Source: Acholeplasmataceae bacterium (GTDB lineage: Bacteria; Bacillota_I; Bacilli_A; Acholeplasmatales; Acholeplasmataceae). Taken from it: 64,000 nt of DNA. Positions 42,933 through 50,131 of the stretch are shown piece by piece. The notes beneath the pieces are model-generated. The model did not search any database. It had not been told where the DNA came from and saw nothing but the letters and a program-made list of their open reading frames with translations. The stretch covers positions 4,839 through 68,838 of the forward strand of contig JAZHDG010000035.1 of the NCBI GenBank assembly GCA_036584525.1, read 5' to 3'. The position numbers and the translations under genes are program-made. Numbering within the stretch: position 1 is the stretch's first letter; every line of letters begins with the position of its first letter.

Positions 42933-43077
42933 AATATCACCCGTTAAATAATACCATATTTTATGACAATTTACTACGTAAACAAATAGTTAAAATTATT
43001 GTATATTTTAACAAATATGTTAAAATATGGCTTGTTTAGTATAAAAAAGCATATAAATAGCAATGAAATACCCCCTA

Positions 43078-43086
43078 TGTTATAAT
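43078..43086 (+). promoter_or_regulatory. Extended -10 element (TGTTATAAT) for dps
   Basis: A TGnTATAAT match ~34 nt upstream of the dps ATG. Confidence 0.5.
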
Positions 43087-43119
43087 AAAAGCAGAAATAA
43101 GAAAGGAAAGGTATTAAAT

Positions 43120-43554
43120 ATGGAAAAACTTTATCAAGCTTTAAACAAGCAAGTCGCAAACTTAAGCGTATTCTTTACGAAGTTGCATCATTTTCACTGG
43201 TATGTTACCGGTCCTAACTTCTATGCATTACACGGAAAATTTGAAGAGTTCTACGATGAAATGAATGAATTATATGATGGATTCGCAGAAAGATTATTAA
43301 TGATAGGTGGCAAACCAATATCAAATCTTAAGGGTTATTTAGAAATCGCATCAATTAAAGAAGCAAGTGGTTTAGAAAAACCTGAAGAAATGGTTAAACA
43401 CATTCTTGATGACTTTAAATTATTAACCATTGAGTTAAAAGAAACTTTAAAAATTTCTCAAGATCAAAATGATGAAGTTACTGCTGATTTAATTATTGGC
43501 ACACTTGCAAGTTTTGAAAAGCACATTTGGATGTTAACTTATACACTCAAATAA
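43120..43554 (+). CDS. dps: Dps-family DNA-protecting ferritin-like protein
   Basis: LHHFHWYVTGPNFYALHGKFEEFYDE ferroxidase motif. True start is ATG 43120 (SD AAGGAAAGG); the track ORF is over-extended. Confidence 0.93.
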   Translation: MEKLYQALNKQVANLSVFFTKLHHFHWYVTGPNFYALHGKFEEFYDEMNELYDGFAERLLMIGGKPISNLKGYLEIASIKEASGLEKPEEMVKHILDDFKLLTIELKETLKISQDQNDEVTADLIIGTLASFEKHIWMLTYTLK

Positions 43555-43565
43555 TAAAAAGAAAT

Positions 43566-43589
43566 GCACCAAGCAAATTTGCTTGGTGC
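43566..43589. terminator. Bidirectional terminator between dps and dnaB
   Basis: GCACCAAGCA-aatt-TGCTTGGTGC with T-runs on both strands. Confidence 0.85.
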
Positions 43590-43596
43590 TATTTTT

Positions 43597-44952
43597 TTAA
43601 TCTTTAAATGATTCTTCTTCACGTTCTGTTTGAACGGTAAATCGTGAAAATTCTGTATCAAATCTAAACTTAAGGGTAATACCCGCGGCACCTTGCCGAT
43701 TTTTTGCAATCGAAAGTTCAACCTCACCTGTTTTACTTTCGGCATTTCTTTCATAATAATCATTACGATACAAAAACATAACAATATCTGCATCTTGCTC
43801 AATACTTCCAGACTCTCTTAAATCCGATAAAATTGGACGCTTATCTTCACGTTTTTCAACGTCACGAGATAACTGAGACAACGCCAAGATAGGTACTTTA
43901 AGTTCTCTAGCCATCTGCTTTAGTCCTCTAGAGATTTTGGCAACTTCTTCTTGACGATTGCCTGATCGACTATCATCAGCTTTGATTAATTGGAGATAGT
44001 CTATCACAACAAAATCTAATCTTCCTTGTTGCGCAATTTTGCGGCACTTTGCGCGAATATCAGAAACTGTTACCGATGATGAATCATCAAAAACAATTGG
44101 TAATCGTGATAAAGATTGCATACCGCCTTCTAAAAATTGCCATTCACGAGATGTGAGTTTACCCGTTTTAATTTTTGTGTTTTCAATGTTAGCTTCTGCT
44201 GAAAGCATTCTGGAAACCAACTGTTCATTGCTCATTTCCAAACTGAATATCGCAACTCCAGCTTTTCCATCTTTATTTCTTTTCGCCACATTTAACGCTA
44301 AATTCATTGCAAAAGCACTCTTACCCATTGATGGACGAGCAGCTAAAATGATTAATTCTTCGGGTTGAAGACCATTTGTAAAATGATCTAGATTTGAAAA
44401 CCCAGTTCTTAAACCGGTTACATCACCTTTTTTATCACGGTTACGTTCGGTTTTTTCTTTAACTTCTGTAATTACTTCTGAAAGTTCTAAAAATACGGTT
44501 GTTTTTCTTTTTTGTGAAAGTGCAAAAATACTTTCTTCAGCTCTTGTCAAATATTCTCCAGCAGAATTTGCACCTTGATAGCCTTCCTCAAGAATTTCTC
44601 CAGCAAGTCTGATCACCTGACGTTTTAAAGAACCATCCTTCACTAAATCAATATAAGTCTCTAAATGTGCTGTCGAAGGAACAGATTCTGAAAGTTCAAG
44701 CAAATAAGTCATGCCACCAGCTTTGCCCAATGTTTGTTCTGCCTCAAGACGAGCGGCTATGGTGGCATAATCAATCTTAGAATTTTCTTGGTAAAGATCT
44801 TTCATTGCTTTATAGATGAGGCTATGGCTTAAAGCATAGAAATCATCTGGATTTAATTGGTCAATCACTTCGACAACTTTTTTGGGTTCCAAAAACACTG
44901 TCCCCAAAACAGATTGTTCTGCTTCGTGATGATGCGGTAAACTTTTAGCCAT
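43597..44952 (-). CDS. dnaB: Replicative DNA helicase (DnaB family; called DnaC in Bacillus nomenclature)
   Basis: PHHHEAEQSVLG N-terminus, Walker A ARPSMGKSAFA and IDYLQL. Confidence 0.97.
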   Translation of the reverse strand: MAKSLPHHHEAEQSVLGTVFLEPKKVVEVIDQLNPDDFYALSHSLIYKAMKDLYQENSKIDYATIAARLEAEQTLGKAGGMTYLLELSESVPSTAHLETYIDLVKDGSLKRQVIRLAGEILEEGYQGANSAGEYLTRAEESIFALSQKRKTTVFLELSEVITEVKEKTERNRDKKGDVTGLRTGFSNLDHFTNGLQPEELIILAARPSMGKSAFAMNLALNVAKRNKDGKAGVAIFSLEMSNEQLVSRMLSAEANIENTKIKTGKLTSREWQFLEGGMQSLSRLPIVFDDSSSVTVSDIRAKCRKIAQQGRLDFVVIDYLQLIKADDSRSGNRQEEVAKISRGLKQMARELKVPILALSQLSRDVEKREDKRPILSDLRESGSIEQDADIVMFLYRNDYYERNAESKTGEVELSIAKNRQGAAGITLKFRFDTEFSRFTVQTEREEESFKD

Positions 44953-44961
44953 TGATTTTGC

Positions 44962-45405
44962 CTACTTTTCTATAATATGTACTTCAAATTGTGCTTTTAT
45001 ATCTTTATGGAGTTGAACGGTTGCAGTGTAAATGCCAACAGAGTTGATATCACTTGATAATTCAACTTTTTTCTTATCGATTAAAATATGGTGATCCTGT
45101 TCAAATTGTTCAACAATCTGCTTAGTCGTCACGTGACCAAATAATTTCCCGTCTTGTCCAATCTGAATTCCAAGCGTTATTTTCTTTCCATCAATTTCTG
45201 CTTTTAGTTTGCGCATTAATTCTAAATGACGTTCTATTTCTTGTTTTTCTTCTTCTTTTTGTTGTTTTAAAGCTTCTAAGTTTTCATCAGATGCCATCAT
45301 TGCCTTTTTTTGTGTCACAAGATATTGACCAAAACCAGCAGCAACATCCAAAATATCATCTTTTTTCCCACGGCCTTTAACATCTTCTAATAAAATGATT
45401 TTCAT
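44962..45405 (-). CDS. rplI: 50S ribosomal protein L9, as an internal-initiation product of the fused frame
   Basis: 147 aa with a canonical L9 N-terminus. The strong SD GGAGGAGAAGGGG ends 5 nt before ATG 45405-45403. Confidence 0.75.
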   Translation of the reverse strand: MKIILLEDVKGRGKKDDILDVAAGFGQYLVTQKKAMMASDENLEALKQQKEEEKQEIERHLELMRKLKAEIDGKKITLGIQIGQDGKLFGHVTTKQIVEQFEQDHHILIDKKKVELSSDINSVGIYTATVQLHKDIKAQFEVHIIEK

Positions 45406-47397
45406 GATTTCCCCTTCTCCTCCATATTCTAAATCAATAATTTTTTTCAATTCATCTTGGACTTCATGAATTGATTTTTGTTTAATTTGTGCGGCAGCAC
45501 TATTTAAATGACCACCGCCACCGATGGTTTCCATAATGACTTGGACATTGATTTTCTGATATGATCTTGCAGAAACCGATACCGTTTCAGCATCAGTTCT
45601 GGCAATCACAAAAGACGCATCAATACCACTAATCATAAGTGCAGCATCAGCAACCTGAGCAAGTAAAACTCGATCTTCATAAACCTCAGACGTTACAACA
45701 AATGCGAAACGATCTAAATAAATATCCACTTGACTTAAGAGTTGATTAATCTCCATCGTGCGCATGAGATCTCTTCTTAGCCATAGTTTAACTTCTGTGA
45801 TATCTGCTCCTAAATCTCTCAATTGAGATGCAACATCAAATGTTCGAGCACTTGTTCGATAACTAAAATTGTTGGTGTCAACAATCAATCCTGCATACAT
45901 CACACTGGCTTCAAGTGGTGTAATTTTAAATTCTTCTAGTGCTGTATAAAAAGACATAATGTCCGTTAATAATTCAATAGTTGAAGATGCATAGGGTTCG
46001 TTAATTGAGAACATTGCATTAAACGTTTCTTCACCAATACGATGATGATCAATCACAATGACTTTATTAGCTTTTTCTAGTAGTTGAGGACTCATCACAA
46101 TTTTGGGTGATTGTGAATCAATAACGACAAGCATACATTCAGGCATAATTTGTCGATATGCGATATCCGAAGTAATAATACTTTCTTTTATTTGTGGATC
46201 TTTTTCAATCACAATGTCATATACTTTTTTAGTCGTTGGATCTAATTTGTCCTCATCCATTACCATGAATACAGGTTTTTTAGATGCTTTTCCAAGATGA
46301 TAAACTGCAAGAAGTGATGCGAAAACATCTAAATCGGCATGCATATGTCCCATAACGAATATGGAAGATGAGCGATCGAACAAATCAGCAATCGTTTGGG
46401 CATTAATTCGTACACCTACTTTAGAACTTTTGGCAGACGCATCATTCTTCGCACCAAAATATTGGATTTTTTGATCTTGAACGTTAACTACGACCTGGTC
46501 TCCACCTCTTTTTTCAGCGAGTTCAACTGCATTTTGTGCATAAATACCTAAGTCTTCATAATCAATGTCCCAAGAAGCTACACCCATTGAAATACTGACT
46601 CTCGTTTTGTTTTGAGTTGAGATAAGTCGAATTTTATCTAAAATATCAAACTTATCTTGAATCATTCTCACGAGTTGTTCACGATATAAAACAACTAATA
46701 ATCTTTCATCCGAATAAGGTTTTAAAAATCCATCATAACGATTTGCCCAATCAGCAATCGCAGCTAAATATTCACCTTTGAGTGAAGATTGTTCTGAAAC
46801 ATCAAATTGCGATAAGGATTCATCAAAATTATCAAGATAAATTATCCCTAAAGCTGGAATACGATTGTGATATTGTAGTTTAATTTTTTCTCTTTCGGTA
46901 ATATTGAAAAGGTAAAAGAATTTGTATTCTGGTCGATACAAAACGTCATATGTCTCTTGTTTAACCAAAATAGTGAAGCTTAGCATATTATCCATGATGT
47001 TCTTATGGAGTTCTACATGCACATCTTCTAAATCTTTCCCTGTAATTTTTGGATCAAAAATTGATTTAGCATGTGGATTTGCCCATTTAATTTCGTATTC
47101 ATCATCCATTGCGATTATCCCAATAGGTAATTCATTGAAAACTTCATCGCCCACTTGATTCACATGGTATGACAATTTCGTCCACATAGAAAGTCGGTTT
47201 TGTAATGTTTTGACCTTTTGACGTTCTTGTAAGTGGAAAGTAATATAGATCGTCACAAAAACAAGCACAAAACTACTCATTAAAAATACAAATTTGAGTA
47301 ATTGATCTAGTGTATCAAATTGAAAATATGGGATGTATAAATAAATACCTGATGCAAAAATTAAAATGGCCATCACAAAAAAAATCCATCGTTTCAT
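44962..47397 (-). CDS. gdpP: GdpP-like c-di-AMP phosphodiesterase (2 TM, PAS-like, degenerate GGDEF, DHH/DHHA1) fused in frame to ribosomal protein L9
   Basis: A single 811-codon frame. It contains the DHH motif VIDHHR and the DHHA1 motif GGGGH, then ...LEYGGEGEI runs directly into MKIILLEDVKGRGKK (L9) with no stop. Start is ATG 47397, after AGGTGG. Confidence 0.8.
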   Translation of the reverse strand: MKRWIFFVMAILIFASGIYLYIPYFQFDTLDQLLKFVFLMSSFVLVFVTIYITFHLQERQKVKTLQNRLSMWTKLSYHVNQVGDEVFNELPIGIIAMDDEYEIKWANPHAKSIFDPKITGKDLEDVHVELHKNIMDNMLSFTILVKQETYDVLYRPEYKFFYLFNITEREKIKLQYHNRIPALGIIYLDNFDESLSQFDVSEQSSLKGEYLAAIADWANRYDGFLKPYSDERLLVVLYREQLVRMIQDKFDILDKIRLISTQNKTRVSISMGVASWDIDYEDLGIYAQNAVELAEKRGGDQVVVNVQDQKIQYFGAKNDASAKSSKVGVRINAQTIADLFDRSSSIFVMGHMHADLDVFASLLAVYHLGKASKKPVFMVMDEDKLDPTTKKVYDIVIEKDPQIKESIITSDIAYRQIMPECMLVVIDSQSPKIVMSPQLLEKANKVIVIDHHRIGEETFNAMFSINEPYASSTIELLTDIMSFYTALEEFKITPLEASVMYAGLIVDTNNFSYRTSARTFDVASQLRDLGADITEVKLWLRRDLMRTMEINQLLSQVDIYLDRFAFVVTSEVYEDRVLLAQVADAALMISGIDASFVIARTDAETVSVSARSYQKINVQVIMETIGGGGHLNSAAAQIKQKSIHEVQDELKKIIDLEYGGEGEIMKIILLEDVKGRGKKDDILDVAAGFGQYLVTQKKAMMASDENLEALKQQKEEEKQEIERHLELMRKLKAEIDGKKITLGIQIGQDGKLFGHVTTKQIVEQFEQDHHILIDKKKVELSSDINSVGIYTATVQLHKDIKAQFEVHIIEK

Positions 47398-47471
47398 AGG
47401 AACCACCTACTTTAAAGATATTATACCAATAATAAAAGCCCATTTCAATTTAATTCGATATACATAGAAAT

Positions 47472-47496
47472 AAAAACTGCATGCAAGCATGCAGTT
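47472..47496 (-). terminator. Intrinsic terminator after rpsR
   Basis: AACTGCATGC-tt-GCATGCAGTT followed by TTTT on the minus strand. Confidence 0.8.
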
Positions 47497-47504
47497 GTTT
47501 TTAT

Positions 47505-47741
47505 TTAGTCTTTAACGAATGGTAATAATGCCATATGTCGTGCTCTTTTAATTGCTGTCGCAAGTGGACGTTGCCATTTTGCAGATGTTCCTGTTACACG
47601 TCTTGGTAAAATCTTACCACGATCTGTAACAAATCTTTTTAATAGTTCGACATCTTTAAAATCAATGTGTTCCACTTTATTTTGAGTAAAGTAACATACT
47701 TTACGACGCTTTTTAAAGCCACCACGTCTTTGTTGTTGCAT
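47505..47741 (-). CDS. rpsR: 30S ribosomal protein S18
   Basis: [18 protein letters not shown]... Start is ATG 47741, after AAAGGAGGAAACATC. The track ORF is over-extended into ssb. Confidence 0.96.
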
Positions 47742-47754
47742 GATGTTTCCTCCT

Positions 47755-48177
47755 TTAGAATGGTAAATCTTCTTCTGCTGCGAGCTGTTTGCTCGTTTCG
47801 TAGAATTCATCGTTATCCACAGATGGATTGTCCTCTTGGACTTGTTTTGGTTCTGAATCACTTCTACTTTCTAGAAATTGAATCGAATCACACAATACTT
47901 CTGTAACATAACGTGTGCCATTATCGGTTTCGTATTGTCTTGTTTGAATACGTCCTTCGACACCTAATAGTGCGCCTTTTTTGACAAAACGCTCTAAATT
48001 TTCCGCTTGTTTACGCCAAACCACACATTGAATGAAGTCTGCTTGTCTTTCGCCGGATTGGTCGGTAAATTGGCGGTTTACTGCGAGTGTAAATGAGCAT
48101 ACAGCAATATTTGACTGTGTCATTTTTAACTCAGGGTCTTTTGTAATACGACCCACTAATATGACGCGATTCATCAT
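47755..48177 (-). CDS. ssb: Single-stranded DNA-binding protein
   Basis: OB fold ([15 protein letters not shown]) and acidic tail ending DLPF. Confidence 0.96.
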
Positions 48178-48178
48178 A

Positions 48179-48466
48179 TTATTCGCCTTCCTTTACAACG
48201 ATATAGCGAATGACTTCTTCTGTGATTCTAACAACGCGGTTGAATTCTGCAACTGCTTCTGGAGTCGCTTCAACAAGTAGCCAAACGTAATAACCTTTTT
48301 TATGATGTTCAATCTCGTAAGCTAAATCTTTTAGCCCCAACTCTTTGAGCTCAAGAACTTGACTATTATAATTCACAAAAATTTCATTAAAGTGATTTAC
48401 AATTTGTTTAATGTTCTCGCTTTCAACTGTTGGACGGATGATATACATAATTTCGTACTTTTTCAT
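48179..48466 (-). CDS. rpsF: 30S ribosomal protein S6
   Basis: [12 protein letters not shown]. Start is ATG 48466, 8 nt after AGGAGG. Confidence 0.96.
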
Positions 48467-48556
48467 CTGTTCCACCTCCTTCTGGTCTATGGTCTTAATA
48501 AGACAAGGATATATCTTATGCTTGGTTATTATATCATAGATATACTGCTTTTACAA
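48467..48556 (-). promoter_or_regulatory. rpsF-ssb-rpsR promoter and structured 5' leader
   Basis: TTGTAA (48556-48551), 17 nt, TGATATAAT (-10 at 48533-48528). Leader hairpin ATAAGA/TCTTAT spans 48498-48519. Confidence 0.55.
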
Positions 48557-48575
48557 TGTTTTTAAATGACGAAAA

Positions 48576-49040
48576 TTAAACGATTAATTCGTCCAATTTT
48601 CGATAGATAAACTGTGTTGTTTTTCGAATAGATTGAATCCGAGTTAATCCATTTAAGTCAATTTCATAATTATATAATTGCTCGATAATCTTGATCGAGA
48701 TAAAAGCTTTTTGTTCATGTGTTTGTGGTTCAAAAGTTGGACCTGCATTCCCCGTAATGCCAACACTGACATCCGATTTGAATTTGGCATAAGTTTGTCT
48801 TGCCATCTCTGTAGCAATCTCTTTACTCACTACAGGATACGTATTAAGAACATTGCGAGATATACCTAATACATCTTGTTTAGACTTGATTTGATAAGCA
48901 ACAATTGACCCTAAAAAGACGTTTGATGCTCCTGATATTTTTACCAATTCAGCCGAAACAAAACCACCTGTCATACTTTCTGAAAATGCGATGGTGAAGC
49001 CTTTTTTAACAAGTTTTTTGTATGTGCTTTTGGCAATCAT
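48576..49040 (-). CDS. pncC: CinA C-terminal domain protein (nicotinamide-nucleotide amidase PncC-like)
   Basis: FSESMTGG and GITGNAGP motifs. 154 aa, standalone. Confidence 0.85.
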   Translation of the reverse strand: MIAKSTYKKLVKKGFTIAFSESMTGGFVSAELVKISGASNVFLGSIVAYQIKSKQDVLGISRNVLNTYPVVSKEIATEMARQTYAKFKSDVSVGITGNAGPTFEPQTHEQKAFISIKIIEQLYNYEIDLNGLTRIQSIRKTTQFIYRKLDELIV

Positions 49041-50131
49041 GATAAGACGACTGTAACGGTGATTTCAACGAATTCACCATCAACTTTACGTAAAACAGTT
49101 ATTGTATGGCTATCCCCCATTTTGGCATCGAGAAGTTGGGCTTGAATGTCCTCGATAGTTTCAACCGGACTATCATTCATCTTAATAATCACATCATCAA
49201 TTTTTAATTCTTTATAACCATTTCGTGTCAAATCAAAATCGATGATGACAACTCCGGTTTCAATATCAGGATATAGTGTAGCATCATAAATTGGATTAAT
49301 ATCAGTATTTCTTTGATCGACTAAATTTCTAACCGTTACCCCTAATCTTGGAACACGTTCAATAATTGTAAAATCACTTTCTGTAAATCCGTTAACAACG
49401 ACTGCTGCCATATTAATGCTAATTGCATAATTTAAACCCTCAGCAGCAATAGTGCCATCTTCAGTTGACACTTCAGTAACTTTCGCAACATTAATACCAA
49501 TGACTTCGCCTTCCAAATTAAAAAGCGGACCACCACTATTTCCAGGATTAACTTCCGCATCGTGCATAATAGCTAAATCCTCTACACCATTATAAGGAAA
49601 TGAAGCTAAGCTCACAATTCCTTGTGTGACATAATTATATTTATTAATATCTTGAGGTGTGCCTATTGCATACACATCTTGGCCTTTTTTAATTTCAATA
49701 TTTGTTCCTGGATTTTCAAAAGGTTCAATGAGATGAACTTGTAAATCTTCATCCGTTTCTATGGTTAGAACAGCAACATCATAAATTGCCGAACTAGCAT
49801 AACTTCTCACCGGAATTCTTGGACCTTCATTTCCATAGCGAATGATAATTTCTCCACCATCTTCGATAACATGATGATTGGTCAGTACATAATATTTAAA
49901 AAATGTCGTTTCAGGAATGGCTTCTTTTCGATAAACAATCCCAGAACCATGACCATTGTCGGTTTGTACAATCACAACAGCACCTTCAACATCACTAATC
50001 ATACTAATCCGTTGTTCCTCATATGATTGCGTTGGTACATAAGGTGTTTCTGGTTCTTCAAATAAGTAACATCCTGAAAGTAAAACTAAAAAGAATAATA
50101 ATAAAATCAAACCTAAACTGCGTTTTTTCAT
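49037..50131 (-). CDS. HtrA/DegP-family trypsin-like serine protease with PDZ domain, lipoprotein-anchored
   Basis: Lipobox LLSGC, catalytic His (TNHHV) and Ser (GNSGGPL), and a C-terminal PDZ. Confidence 0.88.
   Translation of the reverse strand: MKKRSLGLILLLFFLVLLSGCYLFEEPETPYVPTQSYEEQRISMISDVEGAVVIVQTDNGHGSGIVYRKEAIPETTFFKYYVLTNHHVIEDGGEIIIRYGNEGPRIPVRSYASSAIYDVAVLTIETDEDLQVHLIEPFENPGTNIEIKKGQDVYAIGTPQDINKYNYVTQGIVSLASFPYNGVEDLAIMHDAEVNPGNSGGPLFNLEGEVIGINVAKVTEVSTEDGTIAAEGLNYAISINMAAVVVNGFTESDFTIIERVPRLGVTVRNLVDQRNTDINPIYDATLYPDIETGVVIIDFDLTRNGYKELKIDDVIIKMNDSPVETIEDIQAQLLDAKMGDSHTITVLRKVDGEFVEITVTVVLS

Follow-up and report, generated by a model that had tools for sequence, protein, structure and literature searches.

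In Bacillus subtilis, Staphylococcus and Streptococcus, the gene of the cyclic di-AMP (c-di-AMP) phosphodiesterase GdpP (gdpP, also yybT), the gene of ribosomal protein L9 (rplI) and the helicase gene dnaB (dnaC) follow each other in this order and are co-transcribed as the gdpP(yybT)-rplI-dnaC(B) operon (PMC4568413). In the branch that comprises Acholeplasma and the phytoplasmas, the first two of these genes are fused. The GdpP-L9 fusion is already known, old and catalogued in this branch, since NCBIfam holds a curated equivalog, NF011110 (CDD PRK14538), under the name [quoted passage not shown], and since RplI carries the label “fusion” for three phytoplasmas (Ca. Phytoplasma mali ATP_00177, Ca. 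P. australiense PA0149 and Ca. P. asteris PAM012) and for A. laidlawii (ACL_0196) in Table S3 of Grosjean et al. 2014 (PMC4014445). A literature search returned this flag and statements on the gdpP/rplI operon, but no paper on the function of the fusion and no biochemical study of any NF011110 member. Here we analyse one such gene, gdpP::rplI, which lies on a stretch of 64,000 nucleotides (the window) of contig JAZHDG010000035.1, from a metagenome-assembled genome (MAG) of an Acholeplasmataceae bacterium that comprises 1.17 Mb in 105 contigs and is 83 % complete. Comparison of about 100 genomes suggests that the gene gives rise to two proteins, the membrane-anchored fusion and a free L9 that is started within it, and that both are likely to be kept by selection.

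The window gene matches NF011110 with 987.1 bits (cut-off 707, E = 7e-297) over model positions 58-835 of 838. Its architecture agrees with that of the family throughout, and it is one more member, from an uncultured genus of the Acholeplasmataceae. The strongest matches, of 1516 and 1600 bits, belong to two genomes of genus g2 (G004 and G023, 0.7-0.9 Mb), which are probably phytoplasmas, and a genome that we take by inference to be A. laidlawii PG-8A (G229) scores 1393 bits. The original prediction, made from the letters of the window, had been aware of no description of the fusion. This has to be corrected, as the fusion is on record and is not peculiar to the genome; the finding in the window is real but ordinary, and a standard annotation pipeline would name the gene from NF011110.

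With the operon of Bacillus, Staphylococcus and Streptococcus the window gene has in common the gene order, the GdpP domains, the catalytic motifs and a Shine-Dalgarno sequence (SD) of rplI inside the 3' end of gdpP. However, a stop codon splits gdpP and rplI in these bacteria, whereas the window gene lacks it and L9 forms a C-terminal module of GdpP. In-frame internal starts are known from E. coli, where infB yields IF2-alpha and IF2-beta, cheA a long and a short form, and clpB products of 93 and 79 kDa. As in these cases, a single open reading frame (ORF) on one mRNA would carry a second SD and start codon giving the C-terminal part as an independent protein. Unlike them, the short product would here be a universal ribosomal protein while the long one joins it to an unrelated signalling enzyme, and the internal start goes back to the original start of the gene and did not arise secondarily.

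The ORF listing gives a single uninterrupted minus-strand frame at 44962..47406, of 814 aa if a GTG start is used. Inspection of the sequence places the true start at ATG 47397-47395, the GTG at 47406 falling inside the SD, which leaves 811 aa. Not one stop codon occurs from 47397 to 44965, and the transmembrane helices, PAS, GGDEF, DHH and DHHA1 are followed in the same frame by the N- and C-terminal domains of L9. The Pfam families PAS_GdpP, GGDEF_GdpP, DHH, DHHA1, Ribosomal_L9_N and Ribosomal_L9_C each exceed their cut-off, so that the stop-less frame with a complete GdpP and a full-length L9, as originally proposed, is confirmed. At the junction the peptide reads ...LEYGGEGEI|MKIILLEDVKGRGKK and the DNA GGAGGAGAAGGGGAAATC-ATG. 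The L9 part scores 106.5-110.5 bits on TIGR00158 (cut-off 58.6) over positions 1-147 of 148, and its residues 1-147 match the structures 7qgu_X and 1div_A over their full length (E about 1e-28). A genome-wide profile search found the fused copy to be the sole L9 match in the MAG.

By its intact motifs the window protein is a GdpP-type phosphodiesterase with predicted activity towards c-di-AMP. Residues 86-661 align with E = 3e-81 to 9n0l, a c-di-AMP phosphodiesterase of solved structure, and also to the catalytic domain of the S. aureus enzyme, 5xsi (E = 2e-66). The catalytic DHH/DHHA1 motifs (HxxxDxD, D, DHH, D, GGGH) are present as GHMHADLD, DHHR, VDTNNF and GGGGH, and these are invariant across 23 relatives. 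A gene for a DAC/CdaA cyclase is found in 38 of the 41 genomes searched, including that of the window (C72:7961-8311, 133.5 bits), which indicates that c-di-AMP signalling exists in these organisms.

The following course of events would account for the locus. The ancestor would have had the Firmicute operon gdpP-rplI-dnaB, with the stop codon of gdpP a few codons before the ATG of rplI and the SD of rplI within the 3' end of gdpP. A single loss of this stop would have merged the two genes. At present, one mRNA from the promoter-like site near 47420-47448 would yield two proteins. Initiation at ATG 47397 would give a membrane-anchored c-di-AMP phosphodiesterase of about 93 kDa with a C-terminal L9 module, a step that follows from the sequence since ribosomes meet no stop at the junction. 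Ribosomes that bind the SD in the linker (45423-45411) would, as the comparative evidence suggests, start at ATG 45405 and produce the free L9, of 147 aa and about 16.5 kDa, for the 50S subunit. Selection would thus retain the internal start for the supply of ribosomal L9 and keep the junction open for some use that the L9 module has on GdpP. That both products are kept by selection, taken as a whole, we regard as likely.

The distribution of the fusion was established mainly on a set of 82 fused genes from 10 GTDB families. The original prediction had proposed to look for the same junction in orthologues, and indeed all 82 sampled relatives lack a stop there, closed single-contig genomes among them. 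In an order-level search, the window's genome and 40 relatives all match the fusion model (41/41), 39 of them in an open frame of 811-863 aa that holds no internal stop; the single stop listed for the window's genome (G000) and seven relatives is the gene's own terminal TAG or TAA. As for the two exceptions, one match (G011, 403 aa) is cut at a contig end and the other (G036) holds one TAA. A class sample of 300 genomes adds the fused frame in five further families of other orders (f14, f19, f21, f22 and f28), and separate GdpP proteins of about 660 aa in families f8, f9, f18 and f25. Among the GTDB relatives that match residues 1-811 are UBA6181, an Acholeplasmataceae MAG with 97 % identity, a Mariniplasma sp. 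and the isolate Peloplasma aerotolerans M4Ah; UBA6181 is the nearest relative and has the same junction as the window. In UBA2284 the fusion gene (L132:601-2971, DDWO01000012.1) shows an apparent frameshift. A real disruption was rejected here, as a run of N interrupts the record.

A tree of the GdpP part, with 100 sequences, sets the 82 fused genes apart from the rest by a single branch, with one change and an SH-like support of 83, and places family f7 as their sister group. Reversals are absent among the 82 fused genes. In a further 59 genomes of family f2, L9 likewise lies in an open frame, of 636-851 aa, and in 57 of them of 808-851 aa. On this phylogenetic evidence the fusion has a single origin and no reversion within the sample. 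Each of the five examined f7 loci carries a stop 2-6 codons ahead of the ATG, in the frame of rplI, and in at least two of them (G057 and G042) gdpP shares this frame, with one stop between the genes, and the gdpP match runs through it. Since a single in-frame stop is all that separates gdpP and rplI there, the fusion is one point mutation away from the ancestral state. In three f7 loci (L087, L088 and L091, of G057, G042 and G085), where the stop lies 2-3 codons before the ATG, the sequences are GGA TAA AAA ATG, GTA TAG TTT ATG and GGA TAA CGA ATG.

Such a short mutational path would also fit if only the free L9 and the catalytic part of GdpP mattered, the L9 tail being a tolerated, functionless remnant of a lost stop: one mutation in an f7-like arrangement could be fixed by drift. 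In addition, the structure model, a poor one, gives no sign that the L9 module docks. However, the last 10 linker codons offer a mean of 7.0 one-base paths to a stop per gene, and the fused part of the GdpP tree covers 41 amino-acid substitutions per site, so that under neutrality many re-separations would be expected. The linker is saturated with change, and the complete lack of reversals among the 82 fused genes of 10 families and the 59 additional f2 genomes speaks against a tail without function. It also follows from the missing stop that the fusion must be made whenever GdpP is made.

A natural experiment bears on the same question. In two sister species of genus g21, G025 (L038:862-3856) and G029 (L039, minus strand), the fusion is directly followed by a tandem free gene encoding an L9 of 154 aa, which carries its own SD (AAAGGAG). 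The free and the fused copies are sisters (SH-like 0.857), which indicates a tandem duplication. In both species the junction SD is gone (-0.4 kcal/mol), while seven g21 species that have the fused L9 only keep it, at -6.4 to -11.8. The free copy retains the near-invariant positions of L9 and the fused copy is changed at I4, G24, N42, G83 and G90. On the L9 model the fused copy reaches 64-72 bits, against about 100-124 for the other fused copies of the family but one, the exception being a match of 72.7 bits in the incomplete G341 that is interrupted by stops. Between G025 and G029 the ratio of nonsynonymous to synonymous substitution rates (dN/dS) is 0.115 for the fused L9 module, which is no higher than in the GdpP part (0.156) or the free L9 (0.133).

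Thus the fused module has altered L9 residues and is nonetheless held at a low dN/dS after the free L9 had taken over and the junction SD had decayed. This suggests that in these two species it has a role on GdpP that does not depend on the canonical signature of ribosomal L9, and it speaks against a tail that is merely tolerated; we consider a functionless remnant unlikely. The module could be a working part of the enzyme, either by docking onto the 50S subunit at or near the L9 site or through a second role independent of the ribosome, but this proposal, with its two variants, is likewise unlikely as it stands. In the docking variant, the L9 module may compete with free L9, and c-di-AMP hydrolysis may sense, or sit beside, ribosomes at the membrane. 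The residue losses in G025 and G029 speak weakly against canonical ribosome docking; since the copy that lost I4, G24, G83 and G90 is still under purifying selection, a ribosome-independent role is the one suggested.

That free L9 is still made from the internal start is very probable from the conservation of the start region. Of the 82 fused genes, 77 have ATG and 5 have GTG as codon 1 of L9, and none has any other codon there, although GTG accounts for only 11.3 % of the Val codons in the fused ORFs. The junction SD is conserved in 78 of the 82. The original prediction had an SD 5 nt before the L9 ATG. An SD is present, but its GGAGG core (45423-45419) is 13 nt away from the ATG and it is a second stretch, GAAGGGG (45417-45411), that ends at a distance of 5 nt. 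Within the 20 nt upstream of codon 1, the duplex with the anti-SD has a median energy of -9.3 kcal/mol in the 82 fused genes and 82 % of these lie at or below -7, as compared with a median of -8.1 and 80 % in a set of 20 free rplI genes. Only 1.5 % of the background, formed by 1974 further in-frame ATG or GTG codons inside the genes, reach -7. At the junction of L013/L113, which is identical to that of the window, the energy is -9.3 kcal/mol. Compared with the remainder of the gene, the mRNA around the junction has less structure in 99 % of 79 relatives, to which the coding constraints of the L9 N-terminus may contribute.

A separate observation concerns the named Mariniplasma/Peloplasma group of 22 genomes, of which 16 have GTG and 6 have ATG as L9 codon 1. 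In the GTG-start loci (L116-L127, L131, L134, L136 and L137) this codon always stands behind GGTGGAGG(A/T)GGAGAA. The flanking codon at the junctions of Mariniplasma, Peloplasma and Acholeplasmataceae MAGs is variable (CCC, CCG, CCA, CTC, ATC, CGC or CAA).

How the internal start would be supplied with mRNA is indicated by 5'-end mapping in A. laidlawii (PMC5138195, Table S1), in which ACL_0196 has a single, weak transcription start site (TSS) at 186908 and no listed site within the gene. In G229 this position (L112:209) lies 7 nt past a TGATATAAT box, with a further 19 nt to the ATG of a fusion of 818 aa, and is equivalent in place to the promoter-like site of the window. Since the only mapped TSS precedes the whole gene, L9 must in A. 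laidlawii be translated from the long mRNA. Consistently, a consensus scan of the roughly 500 nt upstream of the L9 start in the window found no promoter-like site on the minus strand. The ACL_0196 TSS has a very low coverage, of about 3-8, where promoters of ribosomal-protein genes nearby reach up to 290 (PMC5138195). This raises the question of how L9 is supplied in stoichiometric amounts; read-through from rpsF-ssb-rpsR is possible.

The same data can be read the other way, namely that internal initiation does not occur and that all L9 is present as GdpP-L9 in the 50S subunit, or that the cell does without ribosomal L9. An ORF without a stop and the weak TSS of the A. laidlawii gene would both fit, and L9 is non-essential in some bacteria (PMC4014445). 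However, this leaves without explanation why an SD of normal strength and a start codon are conserved at the nucleotide level at the junction, and why precisely those species that have a free L9 gene have lost the SD. In general, moreover, cells need far more copies of a ribosomal protein than of a polytopic phosphodiesterase in the membrane. A single product is, in our estimate, improbable.

The purine-rich junction could also be kept because the protein needs a flexible Gly/Glu linker, or because an SD-like sequence makes translation pause, without being an initiation site. The window's own family, f1, would allow this, as its GG(E/G)GE spells an SD under any codons, and the synonymous recoding test is not significant there (median p 0.30; nearest relative 0.49); because of this Gly/Glu-rich linker the test has no power in f1. 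In other families, however, the linker reads KEE, QEE or EEE and the same GGAGG stands in another codon phase, with significant codon choice: the motif is found in phase 0 (Gly-Gly) in 16 genes and in phase 2 (K/Q/E-Glu-Glu) in 27, and recoding gives p < 0.05 in 8/10 genes of f22, 6/10 of f21 and 4/10 of f19. Since GGAGG occurs in two phases and recoding rarely reproduces it in f19, f21 and f22, the constraint appears to act on the nucleotides, not on the linker peptide. In addition, the codon that follows the motif is always ATG or GTG, and the motif vanishes where a free L9 gene is present, so that a role as mere linker or pause site is very improbable. Finally, a missed stop or 1-nt indel, as could be suspected in a MAG of 105 contigs and 83 % completeness, is refuted as an artefact of assembly or sequencing, with next to no likelihood left to it, because the same stop-less architecture recurs in 82/82 relatives that include closed genomes and the isolate Peloplasma aerotolerans M4Ah, and the 97 % identical UBA6181 has the same junction.

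Several points count against the view that selection maintains both the fusion and the free L9. The AlphaFold2 model, built on an alignment of 23 sequences, has a mean pLDDT of 62.3 and a pTM of 0.40, falls below 50 over residues 660-707 and is too poor to judge where the L9 module is placed on GdpP. The synonymous test fails to reach significance in the very family to which the window belongs. The compared genomes are related, so that p-values and other statistics overstate the evidence and its independence, and the case of G025 and G029 is a single evolutionary event in two sister species. The need for free L9 is assumed, given that some bacteria can do without L9 and that some mycoplasmas have lost it (PMC4014445). 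Proteomic data on either product of any member were not found in the literature search. On balance, the comparison of genomes supports the two products well, and the original interpretation as a whole in part; the physical link that it drew between c-di-AMP turnover and the ribosome by way of the fusion is speculation.

What gives the fusion its wider interest is that a universal ribosomal protein is covalently joined to the main c-di-AMP phosphodiesterase across a large clade, to which Acholeplasma, the phytoplasmas, Mariniplasma/Peloplasma and related lineages from the gut belong, and that the two have not come apart again. Since gdpP and rplI are neighbours across the Firmicutes, the fusion can be seen as a Rosetta-stone hint of a functional interaction between GdpP and L9 or the ribosome. 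Since A. laidlawii can be grown in culture and genetic tools for it are now reported (PMC10805103), direct testing would be feasible. The features of the locus are compiled in Table 1.

Table 1. Features of the gdpP::rplI locus and its surroundings, in positions of the window
Feature	Position	Strand	Details and basis
gdpP::rplI fusion ORF	44962..47397	-	811 codons + TAG stop (44964-44962); ORF listing and sequence
SD (AGGTGG) of the GdpP start	47403..47408	-	5 nt before ATG at 47397; sequence inspection
Two N-terminal hydrophobic (transmembrane) helices	47230..47388	-	sequence inspection; low-confidence structure model: helices 2-21 and 30-81
GdpP PAS domain	46900..47163	-	PF21370, 60.9 bits
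Degenerate GGDEF domain of GdpP	46468..46842	-	PF24898, 87.6 bits
DHH catalytic domain	45889..46362	-	PF01368; DHH motif (VIVIDHHR) 46050-46042; aligns to PDB 9n0l and 5xsi
DHHA1 domain	45436..45681	-	PF02272; GGGGH 45522-45508
Linker LEYGGEGEI, putatively doubling as L9 translation-initiation region	45406..45435	-	sequence; pLDDT < 50
Putative internal SD GGAGGAGAAGGGG	45411..45423	-	duplex energy with anti-SD; conserved in relatives
Internal ATG, L9 codon 1	45403..45405	-	ATG or GTG throughout the 82 fused genes
Complete L9, 147 aa (L9_N, connecting helix, L9_C)	44965..45405	-	TIGR00158; PDB matches
Promoter-like site	47420..47448	-	TTGAAA, 17 nt, TATAAT, extended -10 TG; 11/12 matches, best in region
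Terminator-like hairpin between rpsR and fusion-gene promoter	47475..47496	-	9-pair stem, T-rich tail; consensus match only
dnaB, replicative helicase	43597..44952	-	9 nt downstream, putatively same transcription unit; DnaB, DnaB_C
Terminator-like hairpin closing the gdpP::rplI-dnaB unit	43566..43589	-	10 pairs (6 GC), then T-run

The surroundings of the gene are those of the classical Firmicute arrangement, with rpsF-ssb-rpsR upstream and dnaB downstream. An extended -10 element (TGGTATAAT) and a -35 element (TTGAAA) precede the ATG at 47397. Promoter-like matches are no commoner in the region than in shuffled sequence (20 against 20.8), and for this reason use was made of the 11/12 site upstream of the gene only. 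The hairpin at 47475-47496 is a perfect 9-bp palindrome (AACTGCATGCTTGCATGCAGTT) and would be terminator-like on either strand. An Rfam scan of 43000-49500 gave zero matches. Further away, a gene for a Dps/ferritin-like protein lies at 43063-43554 on the plus strand, and on the minus strand a CinA (PncC-type) domain protein (48576-49040) and an HtrA-like trypsin-PDZ protease (49037-50131) are encoded by genes that overlap by 4 nt.

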